Notes: a model not told the origin generated them from the sequence alone. Counted from the stretch's first letter, positions 6,555 through 39,632 are shown. The stretch: 50,674 nt of DNA from Candidatus Zambryskiibacteriota bacterium (GCA_023267045.1 JAHFOB010000005.1:1-50674), one strand, 5' to 3'. A program made the numbers and translations.

Positions 6555-7163
6555 GGATGACAAGGCTAGGGTTTCTTTTTCAAAATCTTTATCATTCCCA
6601 AACATTGGTTTTATCAGATCGAGGTTTGTTAGTAGAAATTTTCTATTAGACACAAAGTCATTGTAACTACTCCATTTATATTTTTCTGGGCTCCCCACTA
6701 ATTTATCTTTAACAGAGTTCATATGTATGTACGCTGAAGTCCACATTAGTTGAGAATCTGTTTCTATGTTCACAGCTTTGAAACAATCTTGAAAGATATG
6801 GCCAACCCGTTTGTATTTGTTGTTTATATACTTAGAATAACTAGCACAAACTTTAGAAATTAATTTTGAAATTGATATGTCGCCACGTTGTTCTATGAGC
6901 AGATGAAAATGATTTGGCATTAAACAAAAAGAATGAATCTTAAAAAGTTTCTTACCTTCGGTTTCTATTCTTATTCTAGAATAGGGGAGATTGATCATTT
7001 TTTCATTTTTGATTTCTTCCTGTTCGAACCCCATTGCTAGAGCTATTCTAAAAAGAAAAGCTTTGTAGTCTTGTTCCTCGAGAAATACTTTTTGTTTATT
7101 ATTTCCTCTATTGTATATATGAGCGACAGTTCCTTTTGCAAAATTTTTATAGTCTCTGTTCAT
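6528..7163 (-). mobile_element. REP-associated tyrosine (HUH/Y1) transposase, RAYT/IS200-like
   Basis: Motifs HIYNRGNNKQKVF, FCLMPNHFHLLI (HUH), GHIFQDCFK, YIHMNSV, YKWSSY; flanked by four palindromes. Confidence 0.9.
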
Positions 7164-7176
7164 ACTTCTATACTAC

Positions 7177-7263
7177 ATGTCAAAGAGACACTTTGACAAC
7201 CTTGACTAACTTTCAAAATGTTGGCTGTAAACATATGTCAAAGTGTCTCTTTGACATATGTTT
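7177..7263. repeat. REP-like palindrome doublet upstream of the RAYT gene (copies at 7177-7198 and 7229-7263)
   Basis: Same TGTCAAAG-AGACA-CTTTGACA core in both orientations; the second copy has extended arms aaacatatg...catatgttt. Confidence 0.9.
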
Positions 7264-7421
7264 TTTAATCTGTATTTTATAAGGTGAAGGTCATCAACTT
7301 TATGAGATCGTGATACAATTTATTGGATGAGTAAAATTTCAAGTTTTGAAAATAAAATATCGAGGCGAAACCTTGGTGTTGTAGGTTTGCAAATTGTTAG
7401 TTTGTGTTGTATTGTGTAGAA

Positions 7422-7908
7422 GTTATGCTGGATAGTTGCTGGGAGAGACTCTCGAGTCTTTTCTGGAGGAAAGTCCGAACATCAGGCTCGAGGTAACTTG
7501 AGCAAGGGTAGCGGGTAACGCCCGTCGACAGTAATGTTAGAGGTGCGAGCAGTGACGCTTGAGGCGAAAGCTAAAAGTGCCCAGTAAGAATAGAATTCGC
7601 AAGAGATCAATTTTTACGGGGTAAATTCAATAGAAATATTGGAGTGAAACGGCAAAATCCTTACTTTGATGCAAGGCCGTGCTTATGCATCTCACAGAGG
7701 TGAGATGCAGTTATCAAGTTTGAAAGTTTAAAGTTAAAAGTAGATGCGCTAAAAATAAAATTGCGCATTCACTTGATAACTTGATAACTTTTTACTTTTA
7801 ACTGCACTGAACTTCCGTGAGGTGCATAGGAGTGCCGCTTGACCCCGAGAGTAATTTCGGGGCTAGATAAATAACTATCTACAACAGAATTCGGCTTATA
7901 GGCATAAT
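7422..7908 (+). ncRNA. rnpB: RNase P RNA, enlarged by an internal AT-rich insertion
   Basis: Conserved GAGGAAAGTCCG, GTGAAACGG, GCAAG and ACAGAATTCGGCTTAT; P1 pairing gttatgc/gcataat; P2 gatagtt/aactatc. Confidence 0.92.
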
Positions 7909-7913
7909 AAAAT

Positions 7914-7949
7914 GAAAATCGTCACCGTAAAAGGTGGCGATTTTCTTTT
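7914..7949 (+). terminator. Intrinsic terminator after rnpB
   Basis: gaaaatcgtcacc-gtaaaa-ggtggcgattttc followed by tttt. Confidence 0.75.
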
Positions 7950-8015
7950 GTGTTGATAGTAACTTCAGATTTCTATATAATGTAAAAACAAATTAACTAA
8001 ACAACTAATAAAAAT

Positions 8016-10406
8016 ATGGAAGAAACACAGATTGGTTTAGGAAGCAAAGTGAAGATGTTTTTTGATAAGTTTTTGTTTTGGATTTTGATTGGTTTGAGTT
8101 TTCTCGTGCCAATATTTTTCTTGCCATTTTCTTTTGTCTCAATTCAGTTCGGCACAAGTTTACTTTTTGCCACTGGAGCGATTATTTCTATTCTTGTTTA
8201 TATTATCTCTGGGCTTTTTTCAGGTTCTGTTGATTTACCAAAACCAGGCAAATATGTTTTGGGGTTTACTCTCCTTGTGCCTGTGGTTTACACTCTAGCT
8301 GGAGTTGCAAACGGATTTTCTAGAATGTCTTTTTTCGGTTACACATTTGATCCAAGTACAGTCGGTTTTGTTTTCCTCTCCTTTGCATATATGTTTTTGA
8401 TTTCAGTTTTGTTCAAAAACAAAAACAGGATTTTATTTTCGTACATGGCTTTTATTCTATCGTCAATAATTTTCGCTGTTTTTCTATTGAGTAGACTGAT
8501 TTTAGGAGCAAAGTTTCTGTCTCTCGGTACTTTTACTGATCTTACAACTACAACCATAGGTAGTTGGAATAATGTCAGTATATTTTTCGGAATAGGACTT
8601 ATTCTGTCACTTCTGACATATCAAATGCTAAATGTTAGTAGATTGATGAAGATTATTCTTACTATAACATCTCTAGTTTCTCTATTTTTCTTAGCTCTTG
8701 TAAATTTCAGTGTTGTTTGGACTACACTCTCTATAACAGCTTTTCTTTTCATACTATATAGTTTATTTAACTCGGGAGGAGCTTCTTTTTCTAGTTTAAC
8801 TTTCAAACAAAAACTTTATCGTATCCCACTTTATCCTTCTATTGTTTTTGTCGTTTCCATCACTTTTATTGTGTTCGGTAGTTCATTCGGAAACTATTTA
8901 TCAAACACTTTAAAAATTTCTAACGTAGAAGTTAGACCGTCGCTTTCTGTGACGATGAATATTGCTCGCAATACAATAAAGTCACAACCGCTTTTTGGTT
9001 CTGGCCCAAACACTTTTGTTAACGAGTGGCTTTTGTACAGACCAGACGAAATTACAACTTCAGCTTTCTGGAATACAGATTTTACAAACGGTATCGGTCT
9101 TATACCGACTTTTGCTGTAACCACTGGTCTTCTAGGGGTTTTGTCTTGGCTTGTTTTTCTAGGGTTCTACGCTTATCTTGGTGTTAAATCGATTTTCACT
9201 AGAATTGAAGATTCTTTCGTCAAATATCTTTTGACCTCGTCATTTTTTGTCTCTCTCTATTTGTGGGTGATGACATTTGTTTATGTTCCTAGCACTGTTA
9301 TATTGATTTTAACTTTCTTTTTTACTGGTCTGTTTTTTGCTTCAGTTTATTCATCTGGAATGATTTCCGTTGTGTCAAAATCTTTTTCTGGAAATCCAAA
9401 ATCAGGATTTGTTTCTTCTCTAATTATGATAGTTTTGCTCGTTTCTGGCGCATGGCTTGCTTACGGTATTTTCCAGAACTCAAAATCTCTATGGTATTTC
9501 CAAAAAAGCTCGTATGCTCTAAATACCGATAAAAATATAACTACATCGGAAAATTATATGGTTCAAGCTCTAAATACCGTGCCAAACGACGTTTATTTCC
9601 GAGCACTTTCACAGATCGAAATTTTGAAACTTAATGCTATTTTGTCACAGGACATAAAACAGATAAAACCAGAAGAAATACAAAAACAGTTTCAAGCAAC
9701 TTTATCTGACGCAATAAAAGCCGGCCTTTCTGCAAAAGAGGCGGACTCTTCAAATTATCTTAACTGGATTTCGTTAGGTGATGTTTATGGGTCTGTTTCT
9801 TTACCACAACTAAAAGTTGATGGTGCTTACGAGAGTGCTCAACTGGCATACTCTGAAGCTCTTCATAGAAATCCAAAAAATCCGGCAATTCTTATGCTTT
9901 TTGCTAGACTCGCCGTCACTCGAGAGGATTTGAAATCAGCCCAGTCTTATGCTGAACAGGCGATTCAAGCTAAAAACAATTATCTCGACGCCTACTTCCT
10001 CTTATCACAAATAGAAGTGGCTGACAAAAATATAAATGGAGCTATCAGTTCTGTCACTTCTGCATCTGTTATTGACCCGACAAACCCAGCCATTTTCTTT
10101 CAGTTAGGACTTTTGAAATACAATATCTCTGATTTCAAAGGCGCGATAGAGGCGCTAGAGAAAGCAACAAACATGACACCAGACTATGCTAACGCAAAAT
10201 ATTTCCTCGGGCTCTCATATGAGGCAACCGGTCAGCATCAAAAAGCTATAAAACAATTTCAAGATTTGAAAGTGACAAATCCAGATAGCACTGAAGTAGA
10301 TGCTATTTTGAATAATCTACTTGCCGGCAAATCTATTTTTGCCAATAGTAGCAATTCAAAACCAGAAAAAGCTGATAAGTTACCAGTCAAAGAAAAAGTT
10401 CAATAA
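8016..10406 (+). CDS. Polytopic membrane protein, O-antigen-ligase/Wzy-like with C-terminal TPRs
   Basis: Many hydrophobic helices, a PLFGSGPNTF motif and C-terminal TPR-like repeats; adjacent to murJ. Confidence 0.7.
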   Translation: MEETQIGLGSKVKMFFDKFLFWILIGLSFLVPIFFLPFSFVSIQFGTSLLFATGAIISILVYIISGLFSGSVDLPKPGKYVLGFTLLVPVVYTLAGVANGFSRMSFFGYTFDPSTVGFVFLSFAYMFLISVLFKNKNRILFSYMAFILSSIIFAVFLLSRLILGAKFLSLGTFTDLTTTTIGSWNNVSIFFGIGLILSLLTYQMLNVSRLMKIILTITSLVSLFFLALVNFSVVWTTLSITAFLFILYSLFNSGGASFSSLTFKQKLYRIPLYPSIVFVVSITFIVFGSSFGNYLSNTLKISNVEVRPSLSVTMNIARNTIKSQPLFGSGPNTFVNEWLLYRPDEITTSAFWNTDFTNGIGLIPTFAVTTGLLGVLSWLVFLGFYAYLGVKSIFTRIEDSFVKYLLTSSFFVSLYLWVMTFVYVPSTVILILTFFFTGLFFASVYSSGMISVVSKSFSGNPKSGFVSSLIMIVLLVSGAWLAYGIFQNSKSLWYFQKSSYALNTDKNITTSENYMVQALNTVPNDVYFRALSQIEILKLNAILSQDIKQIKPEEIQKQFQATLSDAIKAGLSAKEADSSNYLNWISLGDVYGSVSLPQLKVDGAYESAQLAYSEALHRNPKNPAILMLFARLAVTREDLKSAQSYAEQAIQAKNNYLDAYFLLSQIEVADKNINGAISSVTSASVIDPTNPAIFFQLGLLKYNISDFKGAIEALEKATNMTPDYANAKYFLGLSYEATGQHQKAIKQFQDLKVTNPDSTEVDAILNNLLAGKSIFANSSNSKPEKADKLPVKEKVQ

Positions 10407-30017: not shown

Positions 30018-30123
30018 GGGTTAATTATACCATTTTTACAACAAGCAAAAAACCCTTTTTGAAAAATTGCGGGAGTGGTTAGATGCGTTTAGAACTGTGG
30101 AGTGGAAGAGTATACAGCAAGAA

Positions 30124-30672
30124 TTACGCCTTATGCCATTCTTTAGCTAACAAGCTATAAACCTCTAAATCTACAAAATGGTCATAAAGCCATTCACCTT
30201 CACGAGCAATACCTTCAAAGATAAAACCAAGTTTTTTGGGAATAGCGGAACTTTTTGTGTTTCCAGTCGCACAAGTGATTTCAATGCGATTTAGTCCCAT
30301 TTCTGTAAATGCATAATCTATCACCGCTTTCAAAGTGTCAGTTACAATACCTTTACCTTGTAACTCTTCTCCAACCCAGTAAGCAATAGAGGTTTTCTTA
30401 TTTGCTGTATCCCAAGGATATAATCCAATTCCTCCAATGTGTTGATTGTTATAGAAAATGCCAAAATCAAGACCTTCTTTGTTGGCAAATCTTTTATTAC
30501 TGTCTATTATGTATTTCTCTGTATCCGCTACACTTTTATCATCATCAAGCCACCCAAGCCATTGTCGTAGATAGGTATCGTTCTTTCTAGTTAACTCAAA
30601 GAAAATTCCCGCATCAGATGGTTCTAGTGTTCGTAGTTCAAGATTTTCTCTAACTGGCAGAGTAAGTTTCAT
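30124..30672 (-). CDS. GNAT acetyltransferase, RimJ/RimL family
   Basis: YLRQWLGW, IAYW..E..QGKGI, LNRIEI.CATGN.KS..IP.KLGF..EG..R. Confidence 0.9.
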   Translation of the reverse strand: MKLTLPVRENLELRTLEPSDAGIFFELTRKNDTYLRQWLGWLDDDKSVADTEKYIIDSNKRFANKEGLDFGIFYNNQHIGGIGLYPWDTANKKTSIAYWVGEELQGKGIVTDTLKAVIDYAFTEMGLNRIEITCATGNTKSSAIPKKLGFIFEGIAREGEWLYDHFVDLEVYSLLAKEWHKA

Positions 30673-30704
30673 AAAATTAGTATATCAAATAAGTTCGTAT
30701 CTTT

Positions 30705-31145
30705 TTATTCCTCAACCTCAATATATTCCAATTTAGCTTGGATAATATCTTTGAAATGAGCTTGTTTCAAAGGATATTCCTTACCATTTGGACAGTAGTA
30801 CTTTTGTTGTTCTTCTTTAGCAGTAAAAACAATGAAGGGCACATACTTTAATGGCTTTTTATCTTTTATATACATTCCAAAAATAATTCTTAATCCTTCG
30901 CTAGGAGACATTCTTGGATTTGTAACAGCACATCTGTCTTTATAAAAAAACACTTTTACATTGTCAGGTAACTCTACTTTATAAAGAAACGCTTGTGCCA
31001 AAGGAACTTGATATTCACTATTTATTCTCTCGTTTATTTTTCCTCTGAAAATCTTATAGTGATTTTCAAGGTCTTTCTCTAAGCTGTGTAATTTCTTCAG
31101 TCTTTTTATGTCTCTTTTGACATAAGGGCCCAGAGAGTATTCCAT
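30705..31145 (-). CDS. Putative toxin (RelE/ParE-like fold suspected)
   Basis: Directly downstream of the Panacea gene; basic, with KRDIKRLKK and S.SEGLRIIF patterns. Confidence 0.5.
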   Translation of the reverse strand: MEYSLGPYVKRDIKRLKKLHSLEKDLENHYKIFRGKINERINSEYQVPLAQAFLYKVELPDNVKVFFYKDRCAVTNPRMSPSEGLRIIFGMYIKDKKPLKYVPFIVFTAKEEQQKYYCPNGKEYPLKQAHFKDIIQAKLEYIEVEE

Positions 31146-31157
31146 ATCAGTAAAAAG

Positions 31158-31730
31158 CTAGTAGGCCAGTTTTAGTAAATTTTCTTCAGCTTTTTTACTG
31201 AATGAAATAAGTTTTGGGACGGCCTCGTCTTCCTCCTCTTCATCTGAACCATCATCTCTATAAGACACAAAACTAAAGTCTAAAATTTCATTTTGTTTTT
31301 CAGCAGATAGGTATACAGGGTCTCTATGTGCCAAAGTGCAGATTTCTTTTACCGTTAGTTTGTAGTATTTATCACAGGTTGTGTTCACTGCATCAATCTG
31401 TTGGTTGTCTAGATGTTTGAGGTCGTAGTTTTTCAATGCAACATAAGTTCCATTCTCTCCTTTTGTTATGTATCCATCGTCAACAAGCTCTTCTAGAGCT
31501 TGTTTTGCAAGGTTGTATGTAGGAGTTGGGCCTCTTTGGTTTTTTATATAAGGAACTGATGTAAGAGGGATTTGATATTTCTGGAAGTAGTCAGTATCAC
31601 AGAAAAATGTCAGCTTCCATAGTTTTGTCTCAAAAAGCTGGTTATTATAGTTTTCACAGATATACCAGATGAGTTCCTTAAATTTCTCCTTTTTTTGTTG
31701 GGTTTTAGAGCTCATTTTACTATCATACAT
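31158..31730 (-). CDS. Panacea (DUF4065/SocA-like) antitoxin
   Basis: KFKELIWYI, TKLWKLTFFCD, Y.K...GP, LAH.DP; acidic tail. Confidence 0.8.
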   Translation of the reverse strand: MYDSKMSSKTQQKKEKFKELIWYICENYNNQLFETKLWKLTFFCDTDYFQKYQIPLTSVPYIKNQRGPTPTYNLAKQALEELVDDGYITKGENGTYVALKNYDLKHLDNQQIDAVNTTCDKYYKLTVKEICTLAHRDPVYLSAEKQNEILDFSFVSYRDDGSDEEEEDEAVPKLISFSKKAEENLLKLAY

Positions 31731-31845
31731 ATTATACTTTGTGGTTCCGATGAAGTAAACGAATAGCCCTTGATAATACGGATTTTAGACCTTTCTGCAA
31801 CCTAGTAGCTTGATATTCTTAGCTTTGTAAACTAATGTAAAGAAT

Positions 31846-33225
31846 ATGGAAAGAGCTTTGAAAGGCAACTATTTTGCCGAAGACTTAACACAGAAGAAGC
31901 TGATAGATGACGGCTCCCTGTATGTTTACCAGAGCATACTAGCTGGTCGTTATTCGTTCACAGACCCTATGGGCACTTTTACTGCCTATATTTTGTCCGT
32001 TCCTCTTGAATGGAACAATCTTGATATTGTGAAGTTTATTATCGCAGTAATAAACAAGTATGACTTAAAAATAAGTTATATAAATGTCATATCTAATGCA
32101 ATATCAGATGATTATGTTATAGATATGCCCAAAGAGCTGAAGAAAGCAAAAGAAAGTGGTTCAGAACTGCATACAAATAAGTTTGAGTTCAAGGGAAATA
32201 AAATTGTTACAACCTATCAAGGTGCTTATGCTTGGGCACAAAACTATATTGAAGATAAAAATCCTTTTGACCCTCAACTTCAACGAGTTATAAAAGGTCT
32301 TTTTACAAATACAGCTACAATTGATGACATTTTATTTACCATTGAACATTCAAAGTATTGGGAAGGAAATATCTTAACTCCAAAAAATAAAAATGTAGAT
32401 AAGTATCTATACGCACAGGAGCTATTTAAGAAGTTGCTTGAATTTATATCTATACATATTGACCTTAAGTCAGAAGGTTTAGATAAGATGAAAAAAGATG
32501 TAGAACAGTATATGGAATGGTTTATTCAAGACACCCTTAAAAAAGAGAGTTACAGAAAATCTCTTGGAAATACAAATGTAAAAACCAATCCAAATGTTTT
32601 TACATTTGAAAAGCACAAAGAGATTTTTTTGGAAAAGATGAAGCAAGAGTTTTCAAAGTTTGGAAATGAGTTTGTTATTGAGGATACATTTGACGAACCT
32701 TTTGAGTCAGAACGAATTAGTGAAGAAGAGTTGAGAGCTAGATACAAAAAGAAAGAATTTTTATTCTTTCATACCATATTTGCATTAAACAGACTGAATT
32801 TAATCAAGATATTATCTCTTGGTTCAAATTGGGATTATCACGAAGATTACCCTGTATCTTATGAAGCAAGGATTAGACTCCTTCCGTCTTTACTGACTCA
32901 ATTTGGTTCAAAAAGTGAACAATATGCTATAAGATTTGATACAAACAAATCTCGTTTGTATTTTAAGGATAAAGAAATAAAAATAAAAAAATTTAGCGAC
33001 CAATATCACATATTGAGAATAATGTTTGAAAACCCAAAAGACCTAGCTGATGAATGGTTTTTCTCGCTTGTTGCAGAGAAATACGACTCGTCTGGGCATT
33101 TTTCAGATAAGAAGTTCTACAATGCAATCTACCAGATAAATCTAAAGCTTGGTCGTCTTGGAATAGATGATTTGTTCATTACTACTCGTCAGTCAGTAAA
33201 GATAAACGAGAAGTATATGTCTTAA
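31846..33225 (+). CDS. Hypothetical protein with a probable C-terminal winged-helix DNA-binding domain
   Basis: C-terminal FD..KSRLYF..KEI.I...QYHILRIMF...KKFYNAIYQINLK...VKIN resembles an OmpR-type wHTH. Confidence 0.55.
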   Translation: MERALKGNYFAEDLTQKKLIDDGSLYVYQSILAGRYSFTDPMGTFTAYILSVPLEWNNLDIVKFIIAVINKYDLKISYINVISNAISDDYVIDMPKELKKAKESGSELHTNKFEFKGNKIVTTYQGAYAWAQNYIEDKNPFDPQLQRVIKGLFTNTATIDDILFTIEHSKYWEGNILTPKNKNVDKYLYAQELFKKLLEFISIHIDLKSEGLDKMKKDVEQYMEWFIQDTLKKESYRKSLGNTNVKTNPNVFTFEKHKEIFLEKMKQEFSKFGNEFVIEDTFDEPFESERISEEELRARYKKKEFLFFHTIFALNRLNLIKILSLGSNWDYHEDYPVSYEARIRLLPSLLTQFGSKSEQYAIRFDTNKSRLYFKDKEIKIKKFSDQYHILRIMFENPKDLADEWFFSLVAEKYDSSGHFSDKKFYNAIYQINLKLGRLGIDDLFITTRQSVKINEKYMS

Positions 33226-33247
33226 GATTGTCTTAAGTCGTCTTAAG
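33219..33247. promoter_or_regulatory. Three helically phased GTCTTAAG direct repeats (operator/iteron-like)
   Basis: Copies at 33219, 33230 and 33240, just upstream of the small ORF-rep unit. Confidence 0.6.
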
Positions 33248-33288
33248 TAGACATTGCTATACCCTGAAGTGAACCTTCGGGTTATTTT

Positions 33289-33477
33289 ATGTCTGAAGAA
33301 GATAAGAAAAAAGAAATATCCAAAACAGACTGGTCGTTAAAAGACTTACCAGAAGTGGAGCGTAAAAATGTGTTGAATTTTTTCGCTTTGCTTTTGAGGG
33401 TTGATAAAAGAGTAAATCATAAATTGTATGTTGGACACAGTAATCCTAAAGATACCCAGAGGAGCATATCAACTTAA
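33289..33477 (+). CDS. Small hypothetical protein overlapping the rep start
   Basis: ATG after the repeat/hairpin region; amphipathic helix NVLNFFALLLRVDKR. Confidence 0.5.
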   Translation: MSEEDKKKEISKTDWSLKDLPEVERKNVLNFFALLLRVDKRVNHKLYVGHSNPKDTQRSIST

Positions 33478-34555
33478 ATCGCATATGTTTACACCCAATG
33501 CGGATATTCTTAAAGGTGCTGGAAACTATCTTGTTAAATGTGTGAGTAACCCAACAGCAAAAGATAAGAGAGAAGGTATTTATAGACCAAGACTTACCCT
33601 CATAAAAAGAATGACAAAAAAGAGAGACGAAATACCGCTCAAAGTTGAGTTTTCAGTTCCAAAGATGCTCTATGGAAATAATGTTGAAGAAGTGGAAGAA
33701 AAAGACTTTGATGCTGTTGTAGAGGCACTACATAGGTCTATGAAAGAAATGGGAGCTCTAGTTTCTGTTGAAGAAATAAAGAAAGCTACAGTATCAGCTT
33801 TTCATCCTTCAAAAAACATTGAGCTTAAGGACGGTTATACTTCGGGTTTTGTTATAACTGAACTAAATAAGGTAAATGCGAGTAAGAAGATGGACTTAAA
33901 CAAAGACAGTTTCAGGAACAACGGGCATTCGCTTCAGTTTTACACAAACTCACATTCACTAGTTGTGTATGATAAAGTTCAAGACTTACGGAAACCAGAC
34001 AAGAGAGCGATAGATAAAGACCAGAACAGCATTCAAGGTTCGTTGTTTGATGTTCTGATTGATAAGAAAAACAAAAGAGAAATCCTGCGAGTTGAAGTTC
34101 GTTTGGCTAAAAAGGTCAAAATGAACTCGGTTATTAAAAGTCTCGGCTTCAAAGAAAGTCCAACTTTTCAAGAAGTATTCAAGAAGGACTTATGTAAAAA
34201 GATAGTTTTGAATTACTGGCAAGAACTCGTTAATTCCAAAGACCTTTTCTTGTTTGATATGGAAAGCAATCCGAAAAAAACATTAGAAAAGGTCTTCAAA
34301 GATAATCCAAAGATAAAACCAAAACAGGCACTATATCTTGTCGGGTTGTGGGCTTTAAGTAAGGAAGGAATAAGGGCTACAAGAGCCATTATAGAGAGAA
34401 GAGCAGACAAAAGAACTTGGTATCGTATAGCAGAAGATTTGCCACTACTCAATGATATTTCGGGAAAGGTATATCACGGCTGGGTTAAGCGAATAAATGA
34501 TGTATTGGCAGATTTTGCTCCATTCAAGTTGTCTACATCTGTAGTTGCAGTGTAA
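33428..34555 (+). CDS. Phage/plasmid replication initiator (gpII/X, Phage_CRI-like)
   Basis: MLDTVIL start, LKVEFSVPKMLYGNN, LVVYDK, ILRVEVRL. Confidence 0.7.
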   Translation: MLDTVILKIPRGAYQLKSHMFTPNADILKGAGNYLVKCVSNPTAKDKREGIYRPRLTLIKRMTKKRDEIPLKVEFSVPKMLYGNNVEEVEEKDFDAVVEALHRSMKEMGALVSVEEIKKATVSAFHPSKNIELKDGYTSGFVITELNKVNASKKMDLNKDSFRNNGHSLQFYTNSHSLVVYDKVQDLRKPDKRAIDKDQNSIQGSLFDVLIDKKNKREILRVEVRLAKKVKMNSVIKSLGFKESPTFQEVFKKDLCKKIVLNYWQELVNSKDLFLFDMESNPKKTLEKVFKDNPKIKPKQALYLVGLWALSKEGIRATRAIIERRADKRTWYRIAEDLPLLNDISGKVYHGWVKRINDVLADFAPFKLSTSVVAV

Positions 34556-34580
34556 AGCATTGTCAAGTATGATTATAAGT

Positions 34581-35285
34581 ATGAAAAACGAAAGACCATA
34601 CACAACTTTGTTCCTTCTTGTTTCTGTAGATGGAAAAATCTCTACAGGAGATACAGATATAATGGATACTGATACAGATTACAAACTTATTAATGGTATT
34701 AAAGAAGGTAACAAACAATACTACGACCTTGAACAACAGACTGACCTACACTCTCTTAACTCTGGAAGAGTGTTTGAGAAAATTGGAATGAATGAAAAGA
34801 CAGATGAGCCAGAAAAGACGCCTGTAAGTTTTATTGTAGTAGACAATAAACCTCATCTAAATAAAAATGGAACTACTTATTTAGCCAAAAAGAGTAAAAC
34901 TCTATACATCATTACAACCAATTCAAATCATCCCGCTTTTGAACTTAAAAAAGATTTTCCAAACATTGAGATACTAAAATACGACAACGAAATTGATTTA
35001 GCTGATGCTCTCAAAAAACTAAAGAAGGATTATGGGGTTGACCGCATTACAATTCAGACAGGAGGCACAATAAATACTTCTTGGGTTCGTGAGGGTTTGA
35101 TTGATAGAGTGTTGCTTGTAGTTGCACCTGCTTTAATTGGAGGTAAGGATACTTCTACACTGATGGACGGTGAGTCGCTACATACACACGAGGAATTATT
35201 CAATATAAAGTCTCTAGAATTAGTCCAAGCAAAACCGCTTGAAAACTCCTATCTACTTCTAGAATATAAAGTAAATAATAACTAA
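34581..35285 (+). CDS. RibD C-terminal / dihydrofolate-reductase-like protein
   Basis: RPYTTLFLLVSVDGKI, QTGGTIN, GLIDRV..VVAP.LIGG. Confidence 0.85.
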   Translation: MKNERPYTTLFLLVSVDGKISTGDTDIMDTDTDYKLINGIKEGNKQYYDLEQQTDLHSLNSGRVFEKIGMNEKTDEPEKTPVSFIVVDNKPHLNKNGTTYLAKKSKTLYIITTNSNHPAFELKKDFPNIEILKYDNEIDLADALKKLKKDYGVDRITIQTGGTINTSWVREGLIDRVLLVVAPALIGGKDTSTLMDGESLHTHEELFNIKSLELVQAKPLENSYLLLEYKVNNN

Positions 35286-35286
35286 T

Positions 35287-35463
35287 ATGACAAATAAAGA
35301 TTTTTACATAGCACAAGAGTTGGCAGATAAGTTAAGAGTCAATGTGATGACGATTTATCGTTATATAAAAGCGAAGAAGTTAAAGGCACATAAAATTGGA
35401 AAAGAGTTTCGCATAGATAAGTCAGAGTTTGAAAGGTTTCTTAATAGCGTAAAAACAAAATAA
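35287..35463 (+). CDS. Excisionase-like HTH protein (58 aa; below the ORF-track cutoff)
   Basis: Translated by hand: MTNKDFYIAQELADKLRVNVMTIYRYIKAKKLKAHKIGKEFRIDKSEFERFLNSVKTK. Confidence 0.85.
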   Translation: MTNKDFYIAQELADKLRVNVMTIYRYIKAKKLKAHKIGKEFRIDKSEFERFLNSVKTK

Positions 35464-35467
35464 ATGT

Positions 35468-35680
35468 ATGAGACCAATTAAATATAAATACGGGATAGTA
35501 ATAAATGAAGTAGACCAAAAATCTGAAGAGAAAAGTTTTTCTGCGGTTGCATTAATAGAAGAAATTGGTGGTGGAAAAGTTGAACACAACCTTCCAATGC
35601 TTTTCGGAAAAGATAGAGTAGAGGCACACGATAAGATGGAAACACTAATTAGGCAGTGGATTCAGGTAAACGAAAAATAA
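35468..35680 (+). CDS. Small hypothetical protein
   Basis: ATG-initiated ORF tightly packed in the operon. Confidence 0.55.
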   Translation: MRPIKYKYGIVINEVDQKSEEKSFSAVALIEEIGGGKVEHNLPMLFGKDRVEAHDKMETLIRQWIQVNEK

Positions 35681-35702
35681 AATTAATAATTAGAAAAATA
35701 AT

Positions 35703-36476
35703 ATGCTTAAAAATATAATTATCGCTTGTTTAGTTGCAGTAATAGGGGTTTTAGTCGTATTGCCTTATGTAAAGGGAAATTCAAGTATATCTTCTCTTCA
35801 AGTTGCAAACTCTGGCACGAATGAAGATGTTGAGTTTTTCAGATATATAAATGTATATAAAAGTCTTTTACCAGAAGATAAATTTAAAATTGTTAGCGAA
35901 AGAATAAACAAGGTTTCAGGAGAGGCAGACAAAGAAGACTCAAAGATACAAAATACTTTGATACTTGCTATATCTGATGAGATTAAGCAAGACCCAACAA
36001 CAAAAGATATTCTTTCTCAATTGAAAAAAGATGTAGCTACTCTAGTTAAAAACTCAAAGATTGATAAAGATACTCTGTTTAGTAAAAATACAGAATGTGC
36101 AAAATTGACCAGTAACATTAAAGATGAACTATCTAAAAAATATAAAAATACAACTTATGTAACAGAAAAAGAAGAGTTAAATTTTATTTTCTATAGTCCT
36201 TCATTAAATACTTGTCTCTACACAACTGATTACAGTTATGACTATAGTAATTATACTTTTGGGAAAAGTGAGTCTTATACAAAGAAATCAGATAAAATCT
36301 ATGATGTATCCTCAAACAAACAGTTAGGAGATTATCCTAGTTGGTATTGGGAGTATCCTTCTTTGAGTAAGGAAGAGTCTGATAAAGCAGTTACAGAAGG
36401 ACAAAAAAATTATGCCAAATTTATCTTTGAAAACTCTGGGTATAACGCAAAATTGTTGAAGGATATTTATTATTAA
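35703..36476 (+). CDS. Hypothetical membrane-anchored/exported protein
   Basis: N-terminal hydrophobic helix; 257-aa ORF. Confidence 0.7.
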   Translation: MLKNIIIACLVAVIGVLVVLPYVKGNSSISSLQVANSGTNEDVEFFRYINVYKSLLPEDKFKIVSERINKVSGEADKEDSKIQNTLILAISDEIKQDPTTKDILSQLKKDVATLVKNSKIDKDTLFSKNTECAKLTSNIKDELSKKYKNTTYVTEKEELNFIFYSPSLNTCLYTTDYSYDYSNYTFGKSESYTKKSDKIYDVSSNKQLGDYPSWYWEYPSLSKEESDKAVTEGQKNYAKFIFENSGYNAKLLKDIYY

Positions 36477-36479
36477 AAT

Positions 36480-38033
36480 ATGAAAGCAATCATACTAGCT
36501 AGAGAGTCTGATAAAAACCAAGACTCTAATGATGCCCAACTTTCCCGCATACTTTTGTATGTCAAAGCAAATGGTCTTGAAGAATGGAAGGTTTTTAAGC
36601 TCAAGGAGTCTTCTACAAAAGGATACAGAAAAAAGTTTCAAGAGATTATTGAAATCATAAAGACTTCCAAAGAGGTTATTGCTGTAGTAGTTGATACGGT
36701 AGATAGACTTCAAAGAAGTTTTCGTGAGTCAGTTGTCTTTGACGAACTTCGTAAAGAAGGAAAAGTAGAACTACATTTCTATCGGGAAAATCTTGTTATA
36801 AATAAGAAATCAAACAGTGCAGACCTTTTGCGATGGGATATGGGAGTAATGTTTGCAAAGAGTTATGTTTTGCAGTTGAGCGATAATGTTAAACGAAAAC
36901 AGGACAAGATGAGAGAAGATAATGAAATAACAGGAGCTCCTCCAATTGGTTACAAAAGCATTTACAATGACAATCCTTTAAGAATAAGACGAATTGATGT
37001 CGTTCCAGATGAAAAAGACCATTTCATCGTAAAAATCTATGAAGAGTATGCTAAAGGAGATGTTTCTGTTCAGACGCTTTCGGACAGAATGTATAAACTT
37101 GGTTTCAGAAGCAAAATAGATGGAAAAGTAAATCACGCTATGATTTTCAAAATCTTGAATGACCCTTTCTATTACGGATATGCATATTCAAGAACACACG
37201 ACTTGCTCTACCCTCACAAATATCAAACTATTATTTCAAAAGAACTATTTGAGAAGTGCCAAGATGTAATGCAAAGACATAATAAAGTTCCTACAAAGTA
37301 TGCTTCAAAACCTTTCGTTTTTAGAGGTCTGATTATCTGTGGCAAATGTGGAGGTGTTGTAGGAGGTCAAATACAGAAAGGTAAATATGCTTATTACAGC
37401 TGTTCAGGTTTCAAAGACTGTAAAAGAGTGTATGTGCCAGAGCAAGAGCTTCTAGGGCAAGTATATGAGGTTCTGGACAGCATTAAGCTCTCTGACGAGC
37501 GTATAGCAGAGATAACAGAAGGTTTGAAGCAGATAGGAGAAAGTGAAAATAAGTTCCATAAGGTCAATGTAAGTGGCTTAAAGGCAGAGTATGACCGATA
37601 TGAGGCAAGAGTAAAGAAAATGTATGAGGATAGACTTGATGGTCGTATTACAGATGAAATGTATGACAACTTATTAAGAGAATACAAATCTAAACAAGCT
37701 GAAATACTAGAACAGATGAAAGACCACTCTGATGCTGATGAACAGTTCTATATCAGCGCAAATGCAGTGTTAAATCTGGCTAAACGAGCAAAGGAAATCT
37801 TTATGAGTTCTGAAGTAGACGAAAAAAGGCAACTTTTGGGATTTCTACTTTCTAACTGCGTATTAAATGAAAAAACGCTAGGTTTTACCTTGCGTTCTCC
37901 ATTCAATCTGATGGCTACTTTATCAGATGATATTACGATGCGGGCATTCACGGTACGCCATTCGAACCGTGAAACGAGTTGCGAACGAATTGTGGAAGTG
38001 GGCGAAAGAGGAAGTGGCACGCCGGAACGATGA
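36480..38033 (+). CDS. Large serine recombinase (resolvase + recombinase + Zn-ribbon + coiled coil); last ~29 aa derive from the neighbouring element
   Basis: ILARESD (catalytic Ser), DRLQRS, APPIGY, ILNDPFYYG, IISKELF, CGKCG...YYSC. Confidence 0.92.
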   Translation: MKAIILARESDKNQDSNDAQLSRILLYVKANGLEEWKVFKLKESSTKGYRKKFQEIIEIIKTSKEVIAVVVDTVDRLQRSFRESVVFDELRKEGKVELHFYRENLVINKKSNSADLLRWDMGVMFAKSYVLQLSDNVKRKQDKMREDNEITGAPPIGYKSIYNDNPLRIRRIDVVPDEKDHFIVKIYEEYAKGDVSVQTLSDRMYKLGFRSKIDGKVNHAMIFKILNDPFYYGYAYSRTHDLLYPHKYQTIISKELFEKCQDVMQRHNKVPTKYASKPFVFRGLIICGKCGGVVGGQIQKGKYAYYSCSGFKDCKRVYVPEQELLGQVYEVLDSIKLSDERIAEITEGLKQIGESENKFHKVNVSGLKAEYDRYEARVKKMYEDRLDGRITDEMYDNLLREYKSKQAEILEQMKDHSDADEQFYISANAVLNLAKRAKEIFMSSEVDEKRQLLGFLLSNCVLNEKTLGFTLRSPFNLMATLSDDITMRAFTVRHSNRETSCERIVEVGERGSGTPER

Positions 38034-39128
38034 CGAGAACGGTGTGGAAGATCCGAATTTCACGCCAGCTGAGAAACGACGAACGCGACAATGTCGATCA
38101 TTGCGACACGCCGCCTAATGCATTGTCGCGAGGTGCGATGTCACGGCGTCAGCTGCCCAGCAAGCCTACGTTCCGGGGAGCGTCCAGGAGATATCGATCG
38201 AATCCCTACGGTCGTCGAAACTTTAGATCGTCCTCAAAAAGAGACAGTTGCTTGCCATCCGCCCTCATGGTCGCCATGGTTCGGTCGGCTGTCTGGACGA
38301 ACAACAGTGCTAATGCCAGACGATCAATTGGAGGTTTTGAGACGGCGTGGCTAGTGACGTATCGACATAAGTCATTGTAGGGCTTATAGTTACAGTCAGT
38401 CGTTCCCATGAGTCCACCTCATGTGCACGAGCCTGGCCTATTGGCCAGGTGCCTCCGGGGTGCGAACCCGGAGGCCTTTTATATATCACAGAATTGTCGC
38501 TTCTGGGAAGAGCTTGCAACCTTGGGCAATTTTGTGCTTGACGGATTTTTGGTAAAACAGGACAATTGCAGGGTTCTAGGTTAGTCGTATTCAAGAGTCC
38601 ACCTCTTGAGTGTGACGAATTGGGCTCCTGGAGGTGCGAACTTCAGGAGCCCTTCCCTTTTGGGCACTATCATCCCGCATTCTTGACGTCTTCCCACACC
38701 GAATCCCGATCAACCGATCCGCTCTCATTTTTCAGTTCTTCTCGCTCCTTCGCAATCCGAATGACGATGCGCAGGTAGTCGTGAAGCCAACGATGGGCTT
38801 CATCGTTTGCCTCGCCAACCAGTTCCGGAAAGAAGTCTGGCAAGCCGGCGCGTCGTCGACGTGGTGCGTCCGTTGTCCACTCATCGGGCGATGAATCCAG
38901 GTGCCGTGCTACCGACCAATTGTTGTCTCGTTCAGATCTCACCGGGTCACAGTACCAAGCGCGGATCACCAGTCAAGGAGCCTGGCCCCTTCTCGCAATT
39001 CGAATCCCTCGGAGGGTCAGCGCCCATCACTTCGTTTCCTGCCCTGCCGCGAACCCGAAGACTCGGGCTCAGTTGAGCCACTTTCTCTGGTTATCCACAG
39101 CCACGACGGTAGATGTTTCCACTTGCGG
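37939..39128. mobile_element. GC-rich ~1.2-kb non-autonomous element or remnant between the recombinase and tRNA-Ser
   Basis: Abrupt GC rise at 37939 (one sampled 60-mer is 34/60 G+C); bounded by TGCGG at 37939 and 39124; no intact recombinase. Confidence 0.6.
38670..38969 (-). CDS. Possible small helical protein of the GC-rich element
   Basis: Protein-like segment DFFPELVGEANDEAHRWLHDYLRIVIRIAKERE; start uncertain. Confidence 0.35.
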   Translation of the reverse strand: MIRAWYCDPVRSERDNNWSVARHLDSSPDEWTTDAPRRRRAGLPDFFPELVGEANDEAHRWLHDYLRIVIRIAKEREELKNESGSVDRDSVWEDVKNAG

Positions 39129-39210
39129 AAGTGGTGAGATTCGAACTCACGGTACCTTGCGGCACTCTCGTTTTCAAGACGAGCGCGTTAGACCTCTCCG
39201 CCACACTTCC
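39126..39210 (-). tRNA. tRNA-Ser(UGA)
   Basis: ggaagtg/cacttcc-g acceptor stem, anticodon loop CTTGAAA, long variable arm gtgcc-gcaa-ggtac. Confidence 0.93.
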
Positions 39211-39227: not shown

Positions 39228-39632
39228 CTATATCTTTTTTCCCTTTATTTCAAATTGATTTTTTATATCTTTGTGTAAATGATGTTCTTCATAATGACAG
39301 TTAGGACAAATAAGTTCTAGGTTATTTAAATCATTATTTAGTCGGTTTCTATCCTTATGGTGTACTTGCAGTATTTCAAGTTTATTGTAGCCGCATCGCT
39401 CACAGATTACACCCCTTTCTTTCATTAGTCTAACCTTCAAAGCTTGTTGAGATTTTACTTTATCTCTTGGACTACCAATTTTATATTTGATACCAGCTCT
39501 ATTTATATTTGCACAAGTTCTACTACAAGTCTTTTTATTTAGTCCTGACAAAATAAGTTTTCCACAAACAACACAGGGTATTTCTTTTTTCTGAGAAGTG
39601 CCATAACAATTTATGCTACAAAAATTTGACTT
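39228..39632 (-). pseudogene. HNH endonuclease with Cys motifs, apparently 5'-truncated
   Basis: CERCG..LQVHHKDRNRLNN..NL.LICPNCH. The frame continues upstream of the TTG (FCSINC...CVVCGK) and reaches a stop with no ATG. Confidence 0.6.

Follow-up and report, generated by a model that had tools for sequence, protein, structure and literature searches.

A large serine recombinase element at a tRNA-Ser gene of a Candidatus Zambryskiibacteriota bacterium, with a probable attP inside its own recombinase gene

The 50,674-nucleotide stretch analysed here (the window) is an entire 50.7-kb contig of a groundwater Candidatus Zambryskiibacteriota bacterium (GCA_023267045.1, JAHFOB010000005.1:1-50674) whose genome comprises 750 kb in 31 contigs. 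It carries a 7.9-kb element (30068-37943) which is integrated at the 3' end of a tRNA-Ser(TGA) gene and specifies a large serine recombinase (LSR). The best explanation of its structure, to which we assign a probability of roughly 85%, is that attP lies within the element's own recombinase gene, that the tail of the enzyme is swapped with each reaction, and that a GC-rich module has been added in tandem. Crossover would take place at a 4-nt GCGG core consisting of the discriminator and the first acceptor-stem bases of the tRNA. With this core situated in the LSR gene at R488, the free or head-to-tail form would encode a 513-aa enzyme with a conserved helical tail, and the integrated form would encode the first 488 residues plus whatever the neighbouring DNA specifies, the 25 tail codons being left behind at attL. 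A second, non-autonomous GC-rich module of 1.18 kb, in tandem and with the same core, would cause the present 517-aa open reading frame (ORF) to end in module-coded residues.

Attachment sites and recombinase gene

The features on which this reading depends are as follows.

30045-30067, plus strand: host-side arm of attL (B arm), past the original tRNA-Ser 3' end
30068-30072, plus strand: core copy 1, TGCGG, in attL
30070-30150, plus strand: orphan tail, the last 25 recombinase codons and stop in the register of R488, putative P' arm of attP (translation; 27.2 bits with the tail hidden Markov model, HMM)
30089-30095, plus strand: TTAGAAC of the P' arm, coding for part of F-R-T
36480-37943, plus strand: LSR, native codons 1-488, the end being the putative P arm of attP (Pfam)
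37939-37943, plus strand: core copy 2, TGCGG, joining the element to the GC-rich module
37944-38033, plus strand: 29 foreign codons and stop which now close the recombinase ORF, inside the GC-rich block
37944-39123, no strand: GC-rich module of 1180 bp, 52-58% GC, in tandem between element and tRNA (composition)
39124-39128, plus strand: core copy 3, TGCGG, joining the module to the tRNA
39125-39210, minus strand: tRNA-Ser(TGA), intact, its 3' end being the putative B' arm of attB (ARAGORN; Rfam tRNA, 61.4 bits)

The three copies of TGCGG which the first-pass annotation had reported at 30068, 37939 and 39124 are present at 30068-30072, 37939-37943 and 39124-39128. Its caution that a 5-bp core alone is weak evidence was justified, the pentamer having 29 matches in the window versus 40 expected. 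The likeness of the left junction to the tRNA end at 16 of 18 positions also stands: the 18-mer recurs only at 30067-30084, with 2 mismatches (2 matches versus 0.02 expected; at least 2 in 0 of 100 shuffles). The right end of the element, which had been placed at 38033, must be moved to 37943. Because the crossover is at its very end, the tRNA-Ser gene stays whole; its 3' end faces the recombinase gene and its T-loop TTCGAAC is located at 39140-39146.

The recombinase ORF in its present form does specify 517 aa (36480-38033), with M487 and R488 coded at 37938-37943, and the frame said to run from 30067 to 30150 in the same register translates as claimed. The sum of 488 native and 25 orphan codons is the 513 aa foreseen for the circular form. 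The 490 aa foreseen for a direct tRNA junction is the exact length of 35 of the 119 listed homologues, and 66 of the 119 measure 487-493 aa. The present tail had been called unrelated; it is indeed foreign, but the cause had been missed, namely that a separate GC-rich module (37944-39123) sits in tandem at the crossover.

Comparisons within the genus support these boundaries. In G025 the counterpart of 30045-30067 leads directly into tRNA-Ser at GCGG, which makes this locus (L015) an empty site; the spacer next to the tRNA corresponds to the final ~20 nt of the B arm, and the left boundary is the one originally proposed. The site is also unoccupied in G036, where the spacer differs. A full recombinase gene, 76% identical, joins tRNA-Ser directly at the same codon in G017, and remnants of the last 100 codons of the gene lie in the same position against tRNA-Ser in G027 and G001. 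An orphan tail of the same peptide type is kept at the far end of the island in G027 and G033.

The tRNA-Ser(TGA) site is an insertion hot spot. Islands of ~1-9 kb, without a close copy of the window recombinase, occur there in several species of the genus, namely in G007, G010, G011, G033, G006 and G031 (loci L024, L019, L023, L022, L020 and L021, respectively). On the host side the tRNA gene is directly adjoined by a gene for a 107-aa HNH endonuclease (39228-39551), in a flank partly conserved in G007.

By its domains, residues and predicted fold the window enzyme is a large serine recombinase. Pfam matches are to Resolvase (E 1.2e-10), Recombinase (PF07508; E 1.6e-11) and Zn_ribbon_recom (PF13408; E 4.8e-9). 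Among 36 family members R8 and S10 of the catalytic domain are nearly invariant and D75, R76 and R79 invariant (an excerpt of PMC12884075 gives the Bxb1 counterparts of LSR catalytic residues), as are C287, C290 and C308 of the zinc ribbon, C314 being nearly so. An AlphaFold2 model of a long-form member, built from a 60-sequence alignment (mean predicted local distance difference test score, pLDDT, 86.8), contains a predicted coiled coil of two helices (339-386 and 392-417) inserted in the zinc-ribbon domain. The best Foldseek matches to this model are serine integrase-DNA complexes (E 1e-17), and VIA-align pairs it with the LSR-DNA complexes 9dxh_A (Z 14.7) and 4kis_B (Z 14.4).

The 119 best database matches all diverge directly after the equivalent of R488, where most homologues end in two residues or enter an antisense tRNA and a few keep a tail like the orphan. 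We took 159 related loci (79 from species genomes, 80 from metagenomes), of which 149 included the C-terminal region and 139 were unique. The recombinase genes of the latter end as follows.

69 of 139 loci: gene ends in antisense tRNA (ARAGORN call)
30 of 139 loci: gene reads through T-loop-like sequence, no ARAGORN call
14 of 139 loci: long conserved tail
5 of 139 loci: other tail with the same DNA motif
17 of 139 loci: unclassified
3 of 139 loci: fragment
1 of 139 loci: cut by the contig end

The 69 target tRNAs are Asn (39), Ser (13), Gln (6), His (4), Thr (3), Asp (2), Leu (1) and Glu (1); the three Thr calls are probably mis-assigned, the junction being 105-187 nt before the tRNA. In L061, L064, L067, L073, L077, L084 and L093 (Chlamydiota and Verrucomicrobia bins) the recombinase gene enters a tRNA-like sequence not called by ARAGORN, and a tRNA-Thr lies 105-187 nt past it. 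Hosts of the related loci include Saccharibacteria, Paceibacteria, Kazan, Chlamydiota, Bacteroidota, Gammaproteobacteria and Verrucomicrobia bins.

The first-pass annotation had suggested that homologous elements should carry a conserved W.D..RT tail at the distal end, and this is what we found. An HMM made from 15 long tails picked by rule was applied to the 76 loci other than long-form ones that offer 6 kb or more of DNA upstream, a flank limit which hides larger elements. In 38 of them it detected an orphan tail on the recombinase strand, 6.0-11.1 kb upstream of where that gene ends. Across the 139 unique loci (1.88 Mb, six frames) the HMM gave 57 matches of at least 18 bits, every one on the recombinase strand; 41 of these lie upstream, 14 mark the end of the gene itself, and L042 has 2 downstream. 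The opposite strand scored at most 9.6 bits in recombinase-oriented loci, and 10.9 bits was seen in L020, which was taken unoriented. L042, a Bacteroidia contig with tail-like frames at 5852, 7166 and 8103, has a long-form recombinase followed by two further such frames 1.3 and 2.3 kb downstream on the same strand, and looks like a row of short tail-bounded segments.

The DNA past the long-form gene of L117 is colinear (tblastx) with that past the orphan tails of 10 integrated elements, and the long form therefore corresponds to the permuted junction that circles or head-to-tail copies should have. Tandem arrays are common in the family (L053, L113, L066, L129, L104); a recombinase gene is joined to the tail-type arm of another element in L030, L031, L043, L113 and L185, and in L113, L066, L129 and L104 the first element is separated from the tRNA by second, distant LSR genes. 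Taken together, the empty site, the direct tRNA junctions at the same codon, the orphan tails and the long-form genes of relatives strongly support the proposal, made at the outset from the window sequence, that attP lies within the integrase gene. The extension of this structural interpretation to a large, cross-phylum family is likewise strongly supported.

The geometry of the right-hand arms, for which alone it was resolved, agrees with that of known LSRs. Cores were located with GAAC as anchor, that of the T-loop on the tRNA side and that within the Arg-Thr codons for the orphan arm; a search by longest common substring, which produced spurious cores, was abandoned in favour of this motif anchoring. 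Measured from the T of TGCGG, the TTAGAAC of the P' arm is 21 nt distant versus 16 nt for the TTCGAAC of the tRNA T-loop, and this 5-bp shift is kept in 19 of 19 unique loci. A shift of 5 bp alone brings the shared core of these loci into register (76 of 76 cells in four columns); any other shift from 0 to 10 yields at most 43 identical cells of 76. The core itself is 4 nt long in the family and varies with the target tRNA: GCGG (Ser), GCTC (Asn), GCTG (Gln), GCGC (Asp), GCAG (Glu) and GGGT (His). In the LSR model the zinc-ribbon-domain (ZD) motif of attB is closer to the centre, by 5 bp, than that of attP, as stated in an excerpt of PMC3783163, and the window family has the same offset. The enzyme would thus seem to read the universal T-arm in attB and, in attP, a look-alike within its own tail-coding DNA.

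Constraint on the exchanged tail

Several results weigh against this reading or against a role for the exchanged tail. Neither the circle junction nor the empty-site joint, both proposed earlier as targets for read mining, was listed in three public runs, a negative of little weight since these consist of contigs and not reads. In L053, which has two copies of one element, the upstream copy is long-form and the downstream copy abuts tRNA-Gln; a long form thus occurs in tandem integrated copies and is no proof of a free circle. The right end of the GC-rich module abuts the tRNA without a recombinase remnant, and a whole-family profile found nothing above noise when the block was searched for one. 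Solved LSRs align to residues 1 to ~482 of the model only, and on the model the swapped part may be a dispensable appendage. The tails past the crossover in integrated copies range from 2 to >40 residues and vary freely, which suggests that the tail is tolerated in almost any form. Lastly, the Arg codon of the tail is AGA in 52 of 55 cases as opposed to 32% (493 of 1536) in the same genes.

These last observations are the strength of the most serious alternative, that the swap is a neutral by-product: attP would need a look-alike of the T-arm at a fixed distance, this would fall by chance in the final codons of the gene, the tail would play no part in regulation, and both forms of the enzyme would behave alike. 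We consider this nearly an even proposition. The preference for AGA together with the GAAC that is invariant in the 57 distinct tail DNAs means that the tail is constrained at the DNA level, and the canonical LSR fold stops before the crossover. On the other hand, conservation goes on past ~30 nt from the core. Trp is found in 57 of 57 tails, in part as a result of the selection rule. Farther from the core, hydrophobic positions (Ile/Val/Leu/Met and Leu) are held with synonymous codons (for Ile, ATA 17, ATT 15 and ATC 7; for Leu, four codons), which implies a constraint at the protein level. Two tail helices (488-495 and 499-508) are predicted in the AlphaFold2 model with pLDDT values of 73-84. 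In phage Mx8, moreover, the prophage form of the integrase has altered properties according to an excerpt of PMC6070905.

The position of the crossover just past the canonical fold indicates that the clipped enzyme should be structurally complete, which fits the logical need for the integrated form to perform excision. The clipped enzyme would do so with the helix-turn-helix (HTH) protein of the element. That the enzyme changes in activity or direction when its tail is gained or lost, as the first-pass annotation had surmised, is a tentative proposal which we rate somewhat below the neutral one. More doubtful is a complete self-rewriting switch, applied to candidate-phyla bacteria, Chlamydiota, Bacteroidota and others, in which the full-length enzyme, made from the circle or tandem only, would integrate into tRNA genes by way of the universal T-arm and thereby lose its tail helix, the clipped enzyme and HTH protein would excise, and small recombinase-less GC-rich modules would exploit the system through a look-alike of the tail-coding arm and build cassette arrays at tRNA genes of very different genomes. 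On sequence grounds a functional switch of some kind is plausible.

Serine integrases are the main tools for large DNA insertion, and the control of their direction is an active structural question. A C-terminus which changes with each reaction would provide a simple, testable model of state-dependent control. In addition, the family described here has the end of a tRNA gene as its universal and predictable target, with a core that corresponds to the tRNA, and displays the 5-bp attP/attB rule in dozens of independent pairs.

The GC-rich block between element and tRNA

Within the block that separates the recombinase gene from the tRNA the following features were recognized.

37927-38118, plus strand: small ORF across the core, in a frame other than that of the recombinase, homologous to the ORFs which open both G004 units
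37961-37967, plus strand: TTCGAAC at the module left end, 22 nt from the T of TGCGG, a P'-type spacing that is one nt off
38395-38482, plus strand: hairpin unit 1 (repeat family D2; fold -47.9 kcal/mol, z -5.55)
38580-38664, plus strand: hairpin unit 2, whose first stem differs from that of unit 1 by paired changes (z -6.77)
38670-38969, minus strand: 99-aa ORF, remnant of a ribbon-helix-helix (RHH) gene (homology to a G004 protein)

The block has a GC content of 52-58% versus 33-38% on both sides (~55% versus 34% overall), and is bounded on both sides by TGCGG. Of 119 loci no other has a jump of 20 GC points at the junction, the largest being 10-14 points. The block is single-copy in its own genome, and 150 further genomes of the order yielded no copy of it. 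Of 41 genus genomes, two (G000 and G004) contain the left-end motif; of 401 phylum genomes, G000 alone does.

Its relatives are in G004, a sister species of the same genus (genome 78% complete, 5% contamination), where contig C5 contains two related GC-rich units in tandem. The homology between the window and G004 modules starts exactly at GCGG and includes the core-spanning small ORF and the invariant ACGCCATTCGAAC, and their right ends have a short stretch in common. The first G004 unit specifies a trypsin-like peptidase and an RHH_1 protein of 132 aa; the C-terminal half of the latter is 58% identical (E 3e-19) to that of the 99-aa ORF, for which no other homologue of similar length was found among 5.8 billion proteins. 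Segments of 34% and 52-56% GC alternate in the surrounding locus L186 (G004:C5:14000-23520), especially at 5584-6350 and 6917-9521. One of the GC-rich segments of L186 encodes an HpiC1-like protein bearing a PEP-CTERM motif, which would not be anticipated in a genome of the candidate phyla; given the 5% contamination of the bin, this part may be a chimera.

Over the C-terminal 57 aa of P0125, a database protein of 148 aa, the small ORF shows 40% identity (E 2e-12). The small ORF might conceivably be the tail of a GC-rich recombinase: the upstream part of P0125 is in register with the last 55 residues of the recombinase family, though weakly (hhalign, E 0.079). A search for longer relatives found none, and no alignment was obtained between P0125 and the right-end frame of the module. 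A profile of the last 24 recombinase residues hit only the real gene (43 bits). Each hairpin unit consists of a hairpin with the loop TCCAC, followed by a GC-rich terminator-like hairpin (loop GTGCGAA) and a T run, and the two look like small RNAs. No Rfam family reaches threshold in the block; the nearest is ctRNA_p42d in unit 2, with 22.7 bits, under the gathering score.

Like a cis-mobilizable element (CIME), the block is bounded by the same core, was found to contain no recombinase, and has relatives (those of G004) which start at that core. From its sequence we take it to be a tandem insertion, either a non-autonomous module or what is left of a GC-rich relative of the element. Its TTCGAAC at near-attP spacing is a hint that the recombinase of the neighbouring element might mobilize it in trans. 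It might instead be foreign DNA acquired by aberrant recombination, through integration at a pseudo-site in GC-rich DNA followed by excision with a secondary site, with no mobile module involved. This we judge rather unlikely, in spite of the missing recombinase remnant, the lack of any match to the block in plasmids and phages or to the pattern of its hairpin units in viral contigs, and a fragment in the metagenome locus L163 (1848-2035). The latter, ~190 bp of 65% GC directly past the crossover, is where a gene on the minus strand begins; it has GAAC at the spacing of attB and may be a second case of GC-rich DNA at a junction. Such capture does not account well for two related units in tandem in G004 with the same core and the same small ORF at the start, nor for a TTCGAAC at attP-type (22 nt) and not attB-type (16 nt) spacing; this heptamer has 6 matches in the window on both strands, and its left-end copy is invariant in the three module copies.

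Far less probable is an assembly chimera, the recombinase gene truly running into the tRNA. The jump in composition is extreme and the genome is a metagenome bin; in run X1, the likely source, two contigs overlap here by 30 nt, one stopping at precisely 37943 and the other beginning at 37914. The break indicates a branch in the assembly graph at the crossover, and this branch may reflect cells with a different junction. X1, which may be the source sample, X2 and X3 all belong to one study. A contig of X2, from another sample, spans 37466-39160 with 0 differences, reaching 478 nt to the left of the block and 36 nt into the tRNA, and a contig of X3 crosses the left joint. Depth in the block is near that of the flanks (6.5 versus 7.58 in X1; 4.88 versus 5.29 in X2). 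Since contigs from other samples cross the joints and depths match the flanks, the block is real DNA and no artefact of assembly or binning; moreover, the 5-6 nt common at the joints are too little for a k-mer mis-join.

An ordinary tyrosine-integrase tRNA island, with the left repeat a displaced tRNA fragment and the orphan frame a chance ORF, would fit the 16/18 match at the left junction but can be dismissed as exceedingly improbable, given that a Pfam scan found no tyrosine recombinase among the island ORFs (12 within 30067-39124), that similarity to the tRNA ends after 18 nt, and that 57 distinct DNAs preserve the orphan peptide, in every case on the strand of the recombinase.

Active-looking mobile elements and tandem accretion are documented here in very small candidate-phyla genomes, and one example, the GC-rich module, points to DNA traffic from unrelated organisms.

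Other genes of the element and comparison with known systems

In addition to the recombinase the element specifies the following proteins.

30124-30672, minus strand: GNAT acetyltransferase, cargo (Pfam Acetyltransf_3, E 1.1e-26)
30705-31730, minus strand: 146-aa ORF and 190-aa SocA/Panacea-domain protein, cargo (Pfam SocA_Panacea, E 4.8e-9)
31846-33225, plus strand: 459-aa protein
33428-34555, plus strand: 375-aa core gene product, candidate rolling-circle replication initiator
34545-35285, plus strand: RibD_C-domain protein, cargo (Pfam, E 1.8e-20; in 1 of 139 loci)
35287-35463, plus strand: HTH_17 excisionase-like protein, candidate directionality factor (Pfam HTH_17, E 2.4e-13)

The HTH_17 protein falls in PHROG 66 ("excisionase and transcriptional regulator") and has relatives in 59 of the 139 loci, 58 of them upstream of the recombinase. 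Relatives of the 375-aa protein are found in 62 loci and of the 459-aa protein in 12, all upstream and on the same strand; a 62-aa ORF is also common to the relatives. The 375-aa protein has no direct Pfam match. Its neighbours in the Atlas carry Phage_CRI/G2P (best structural TM 0.91; TM 0.66 for the highest-ranked entry with an aligned region sufficient to support this name), and its designation as a rolling-circle replication initiator is a lead only. The 459-aa protein has no match in Pfam, PHROG or NCBIfam and nothing convincing in the Atlas; for those scanned of the 459-, 257-, 146-, 70- and 62-aa proteins no match to these three collections was obtained. The GNAT, 146-aa and SocA/Panacea genes were not found in the 139 related loci. 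The SocA/Panacea gene (for a SocA-like antitoxin) and the 146-aa ORF, which belongs to no family, may form a toxin-antitoxin pair.

The recombinase has the same domain order (resolvase, recombinase domain, zinc ribbon with coiled coil) as the LSRs of A118/LI, Bxb1, phiC31 and SPbeta, and like them has short putative att sites whose distal motif is 5 bp nearer the centre in attB. It differs from them in that the target of its family is the 3' end of a tRNA gene, with the T-arm as distal motif, and in the conserved tail of ~25 aa beyond the canonical fold. An excerpt of a Prochlorococcus preprint records an LSR in 27 of 937 tRNA-island elements, and tRNA is not mentioned in the main text of a large LSR survey (PMC10083194). 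In the literature searched, which excluded supplements and subscription journals, we met with no serine integrase described as having attP within the gene that encodes it. The window element also departs from the tRNA islands of the Islander type, in having a 4-nt identity instead of a tRNA fragment of tens of nucleotides and no tyrosine recombinase among the island ORFs scanned with Pfam.

In composite staphylococcal cassette chromosome (SCC) elements, which employ the Ccr serine recombinases, and in CIMEs beside integrative and conjugative elements, tandem accretion takes place at one att site. The GC-rich block resembles these in being a recombinase-less module with the same att cores in tandem with an autonomous element, but it differs strongly from its host and its neighbour in base composition and opens with a small ORF that spans the core.

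Integrases whose genes extend across attP have been described among tyrosine recombinases. Those of the SSV-type archaeal viruses belong to this class, and integration parts large N- and C-terminal pieces of the gene. The window gene is like them in extending across attP and being split by integration; unlike theirs, its catalytic protein stays whole. Phage Mx8 targets a tRNA gene and its Int is a tyrosine recombinase. As with the IntP and IntX forms of Mx8, the crossover in the window lies in the integrase ORF and integration alters the C-terminus of the protein. An excerpt of the Islander paper, in which "integrase" means the tyrosine family only, lists Mx8 and SSV among the integrases extending across attP, and an excerpt of PMC6070905 (citing Tojo 1996 and Magrini 1999) states that attP of Mx8 is in int, that integration gives the gene a new 3' end and that the prophage protein has another C-terminus. 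The window enzyme differs from that of Mx8 in being of the serine type and not the tyrosine type, in its 4-nt core, and in the exchange of no more than ~25 residues; it acts like Mx8 in this one respect and stands outside the Mx8 family.

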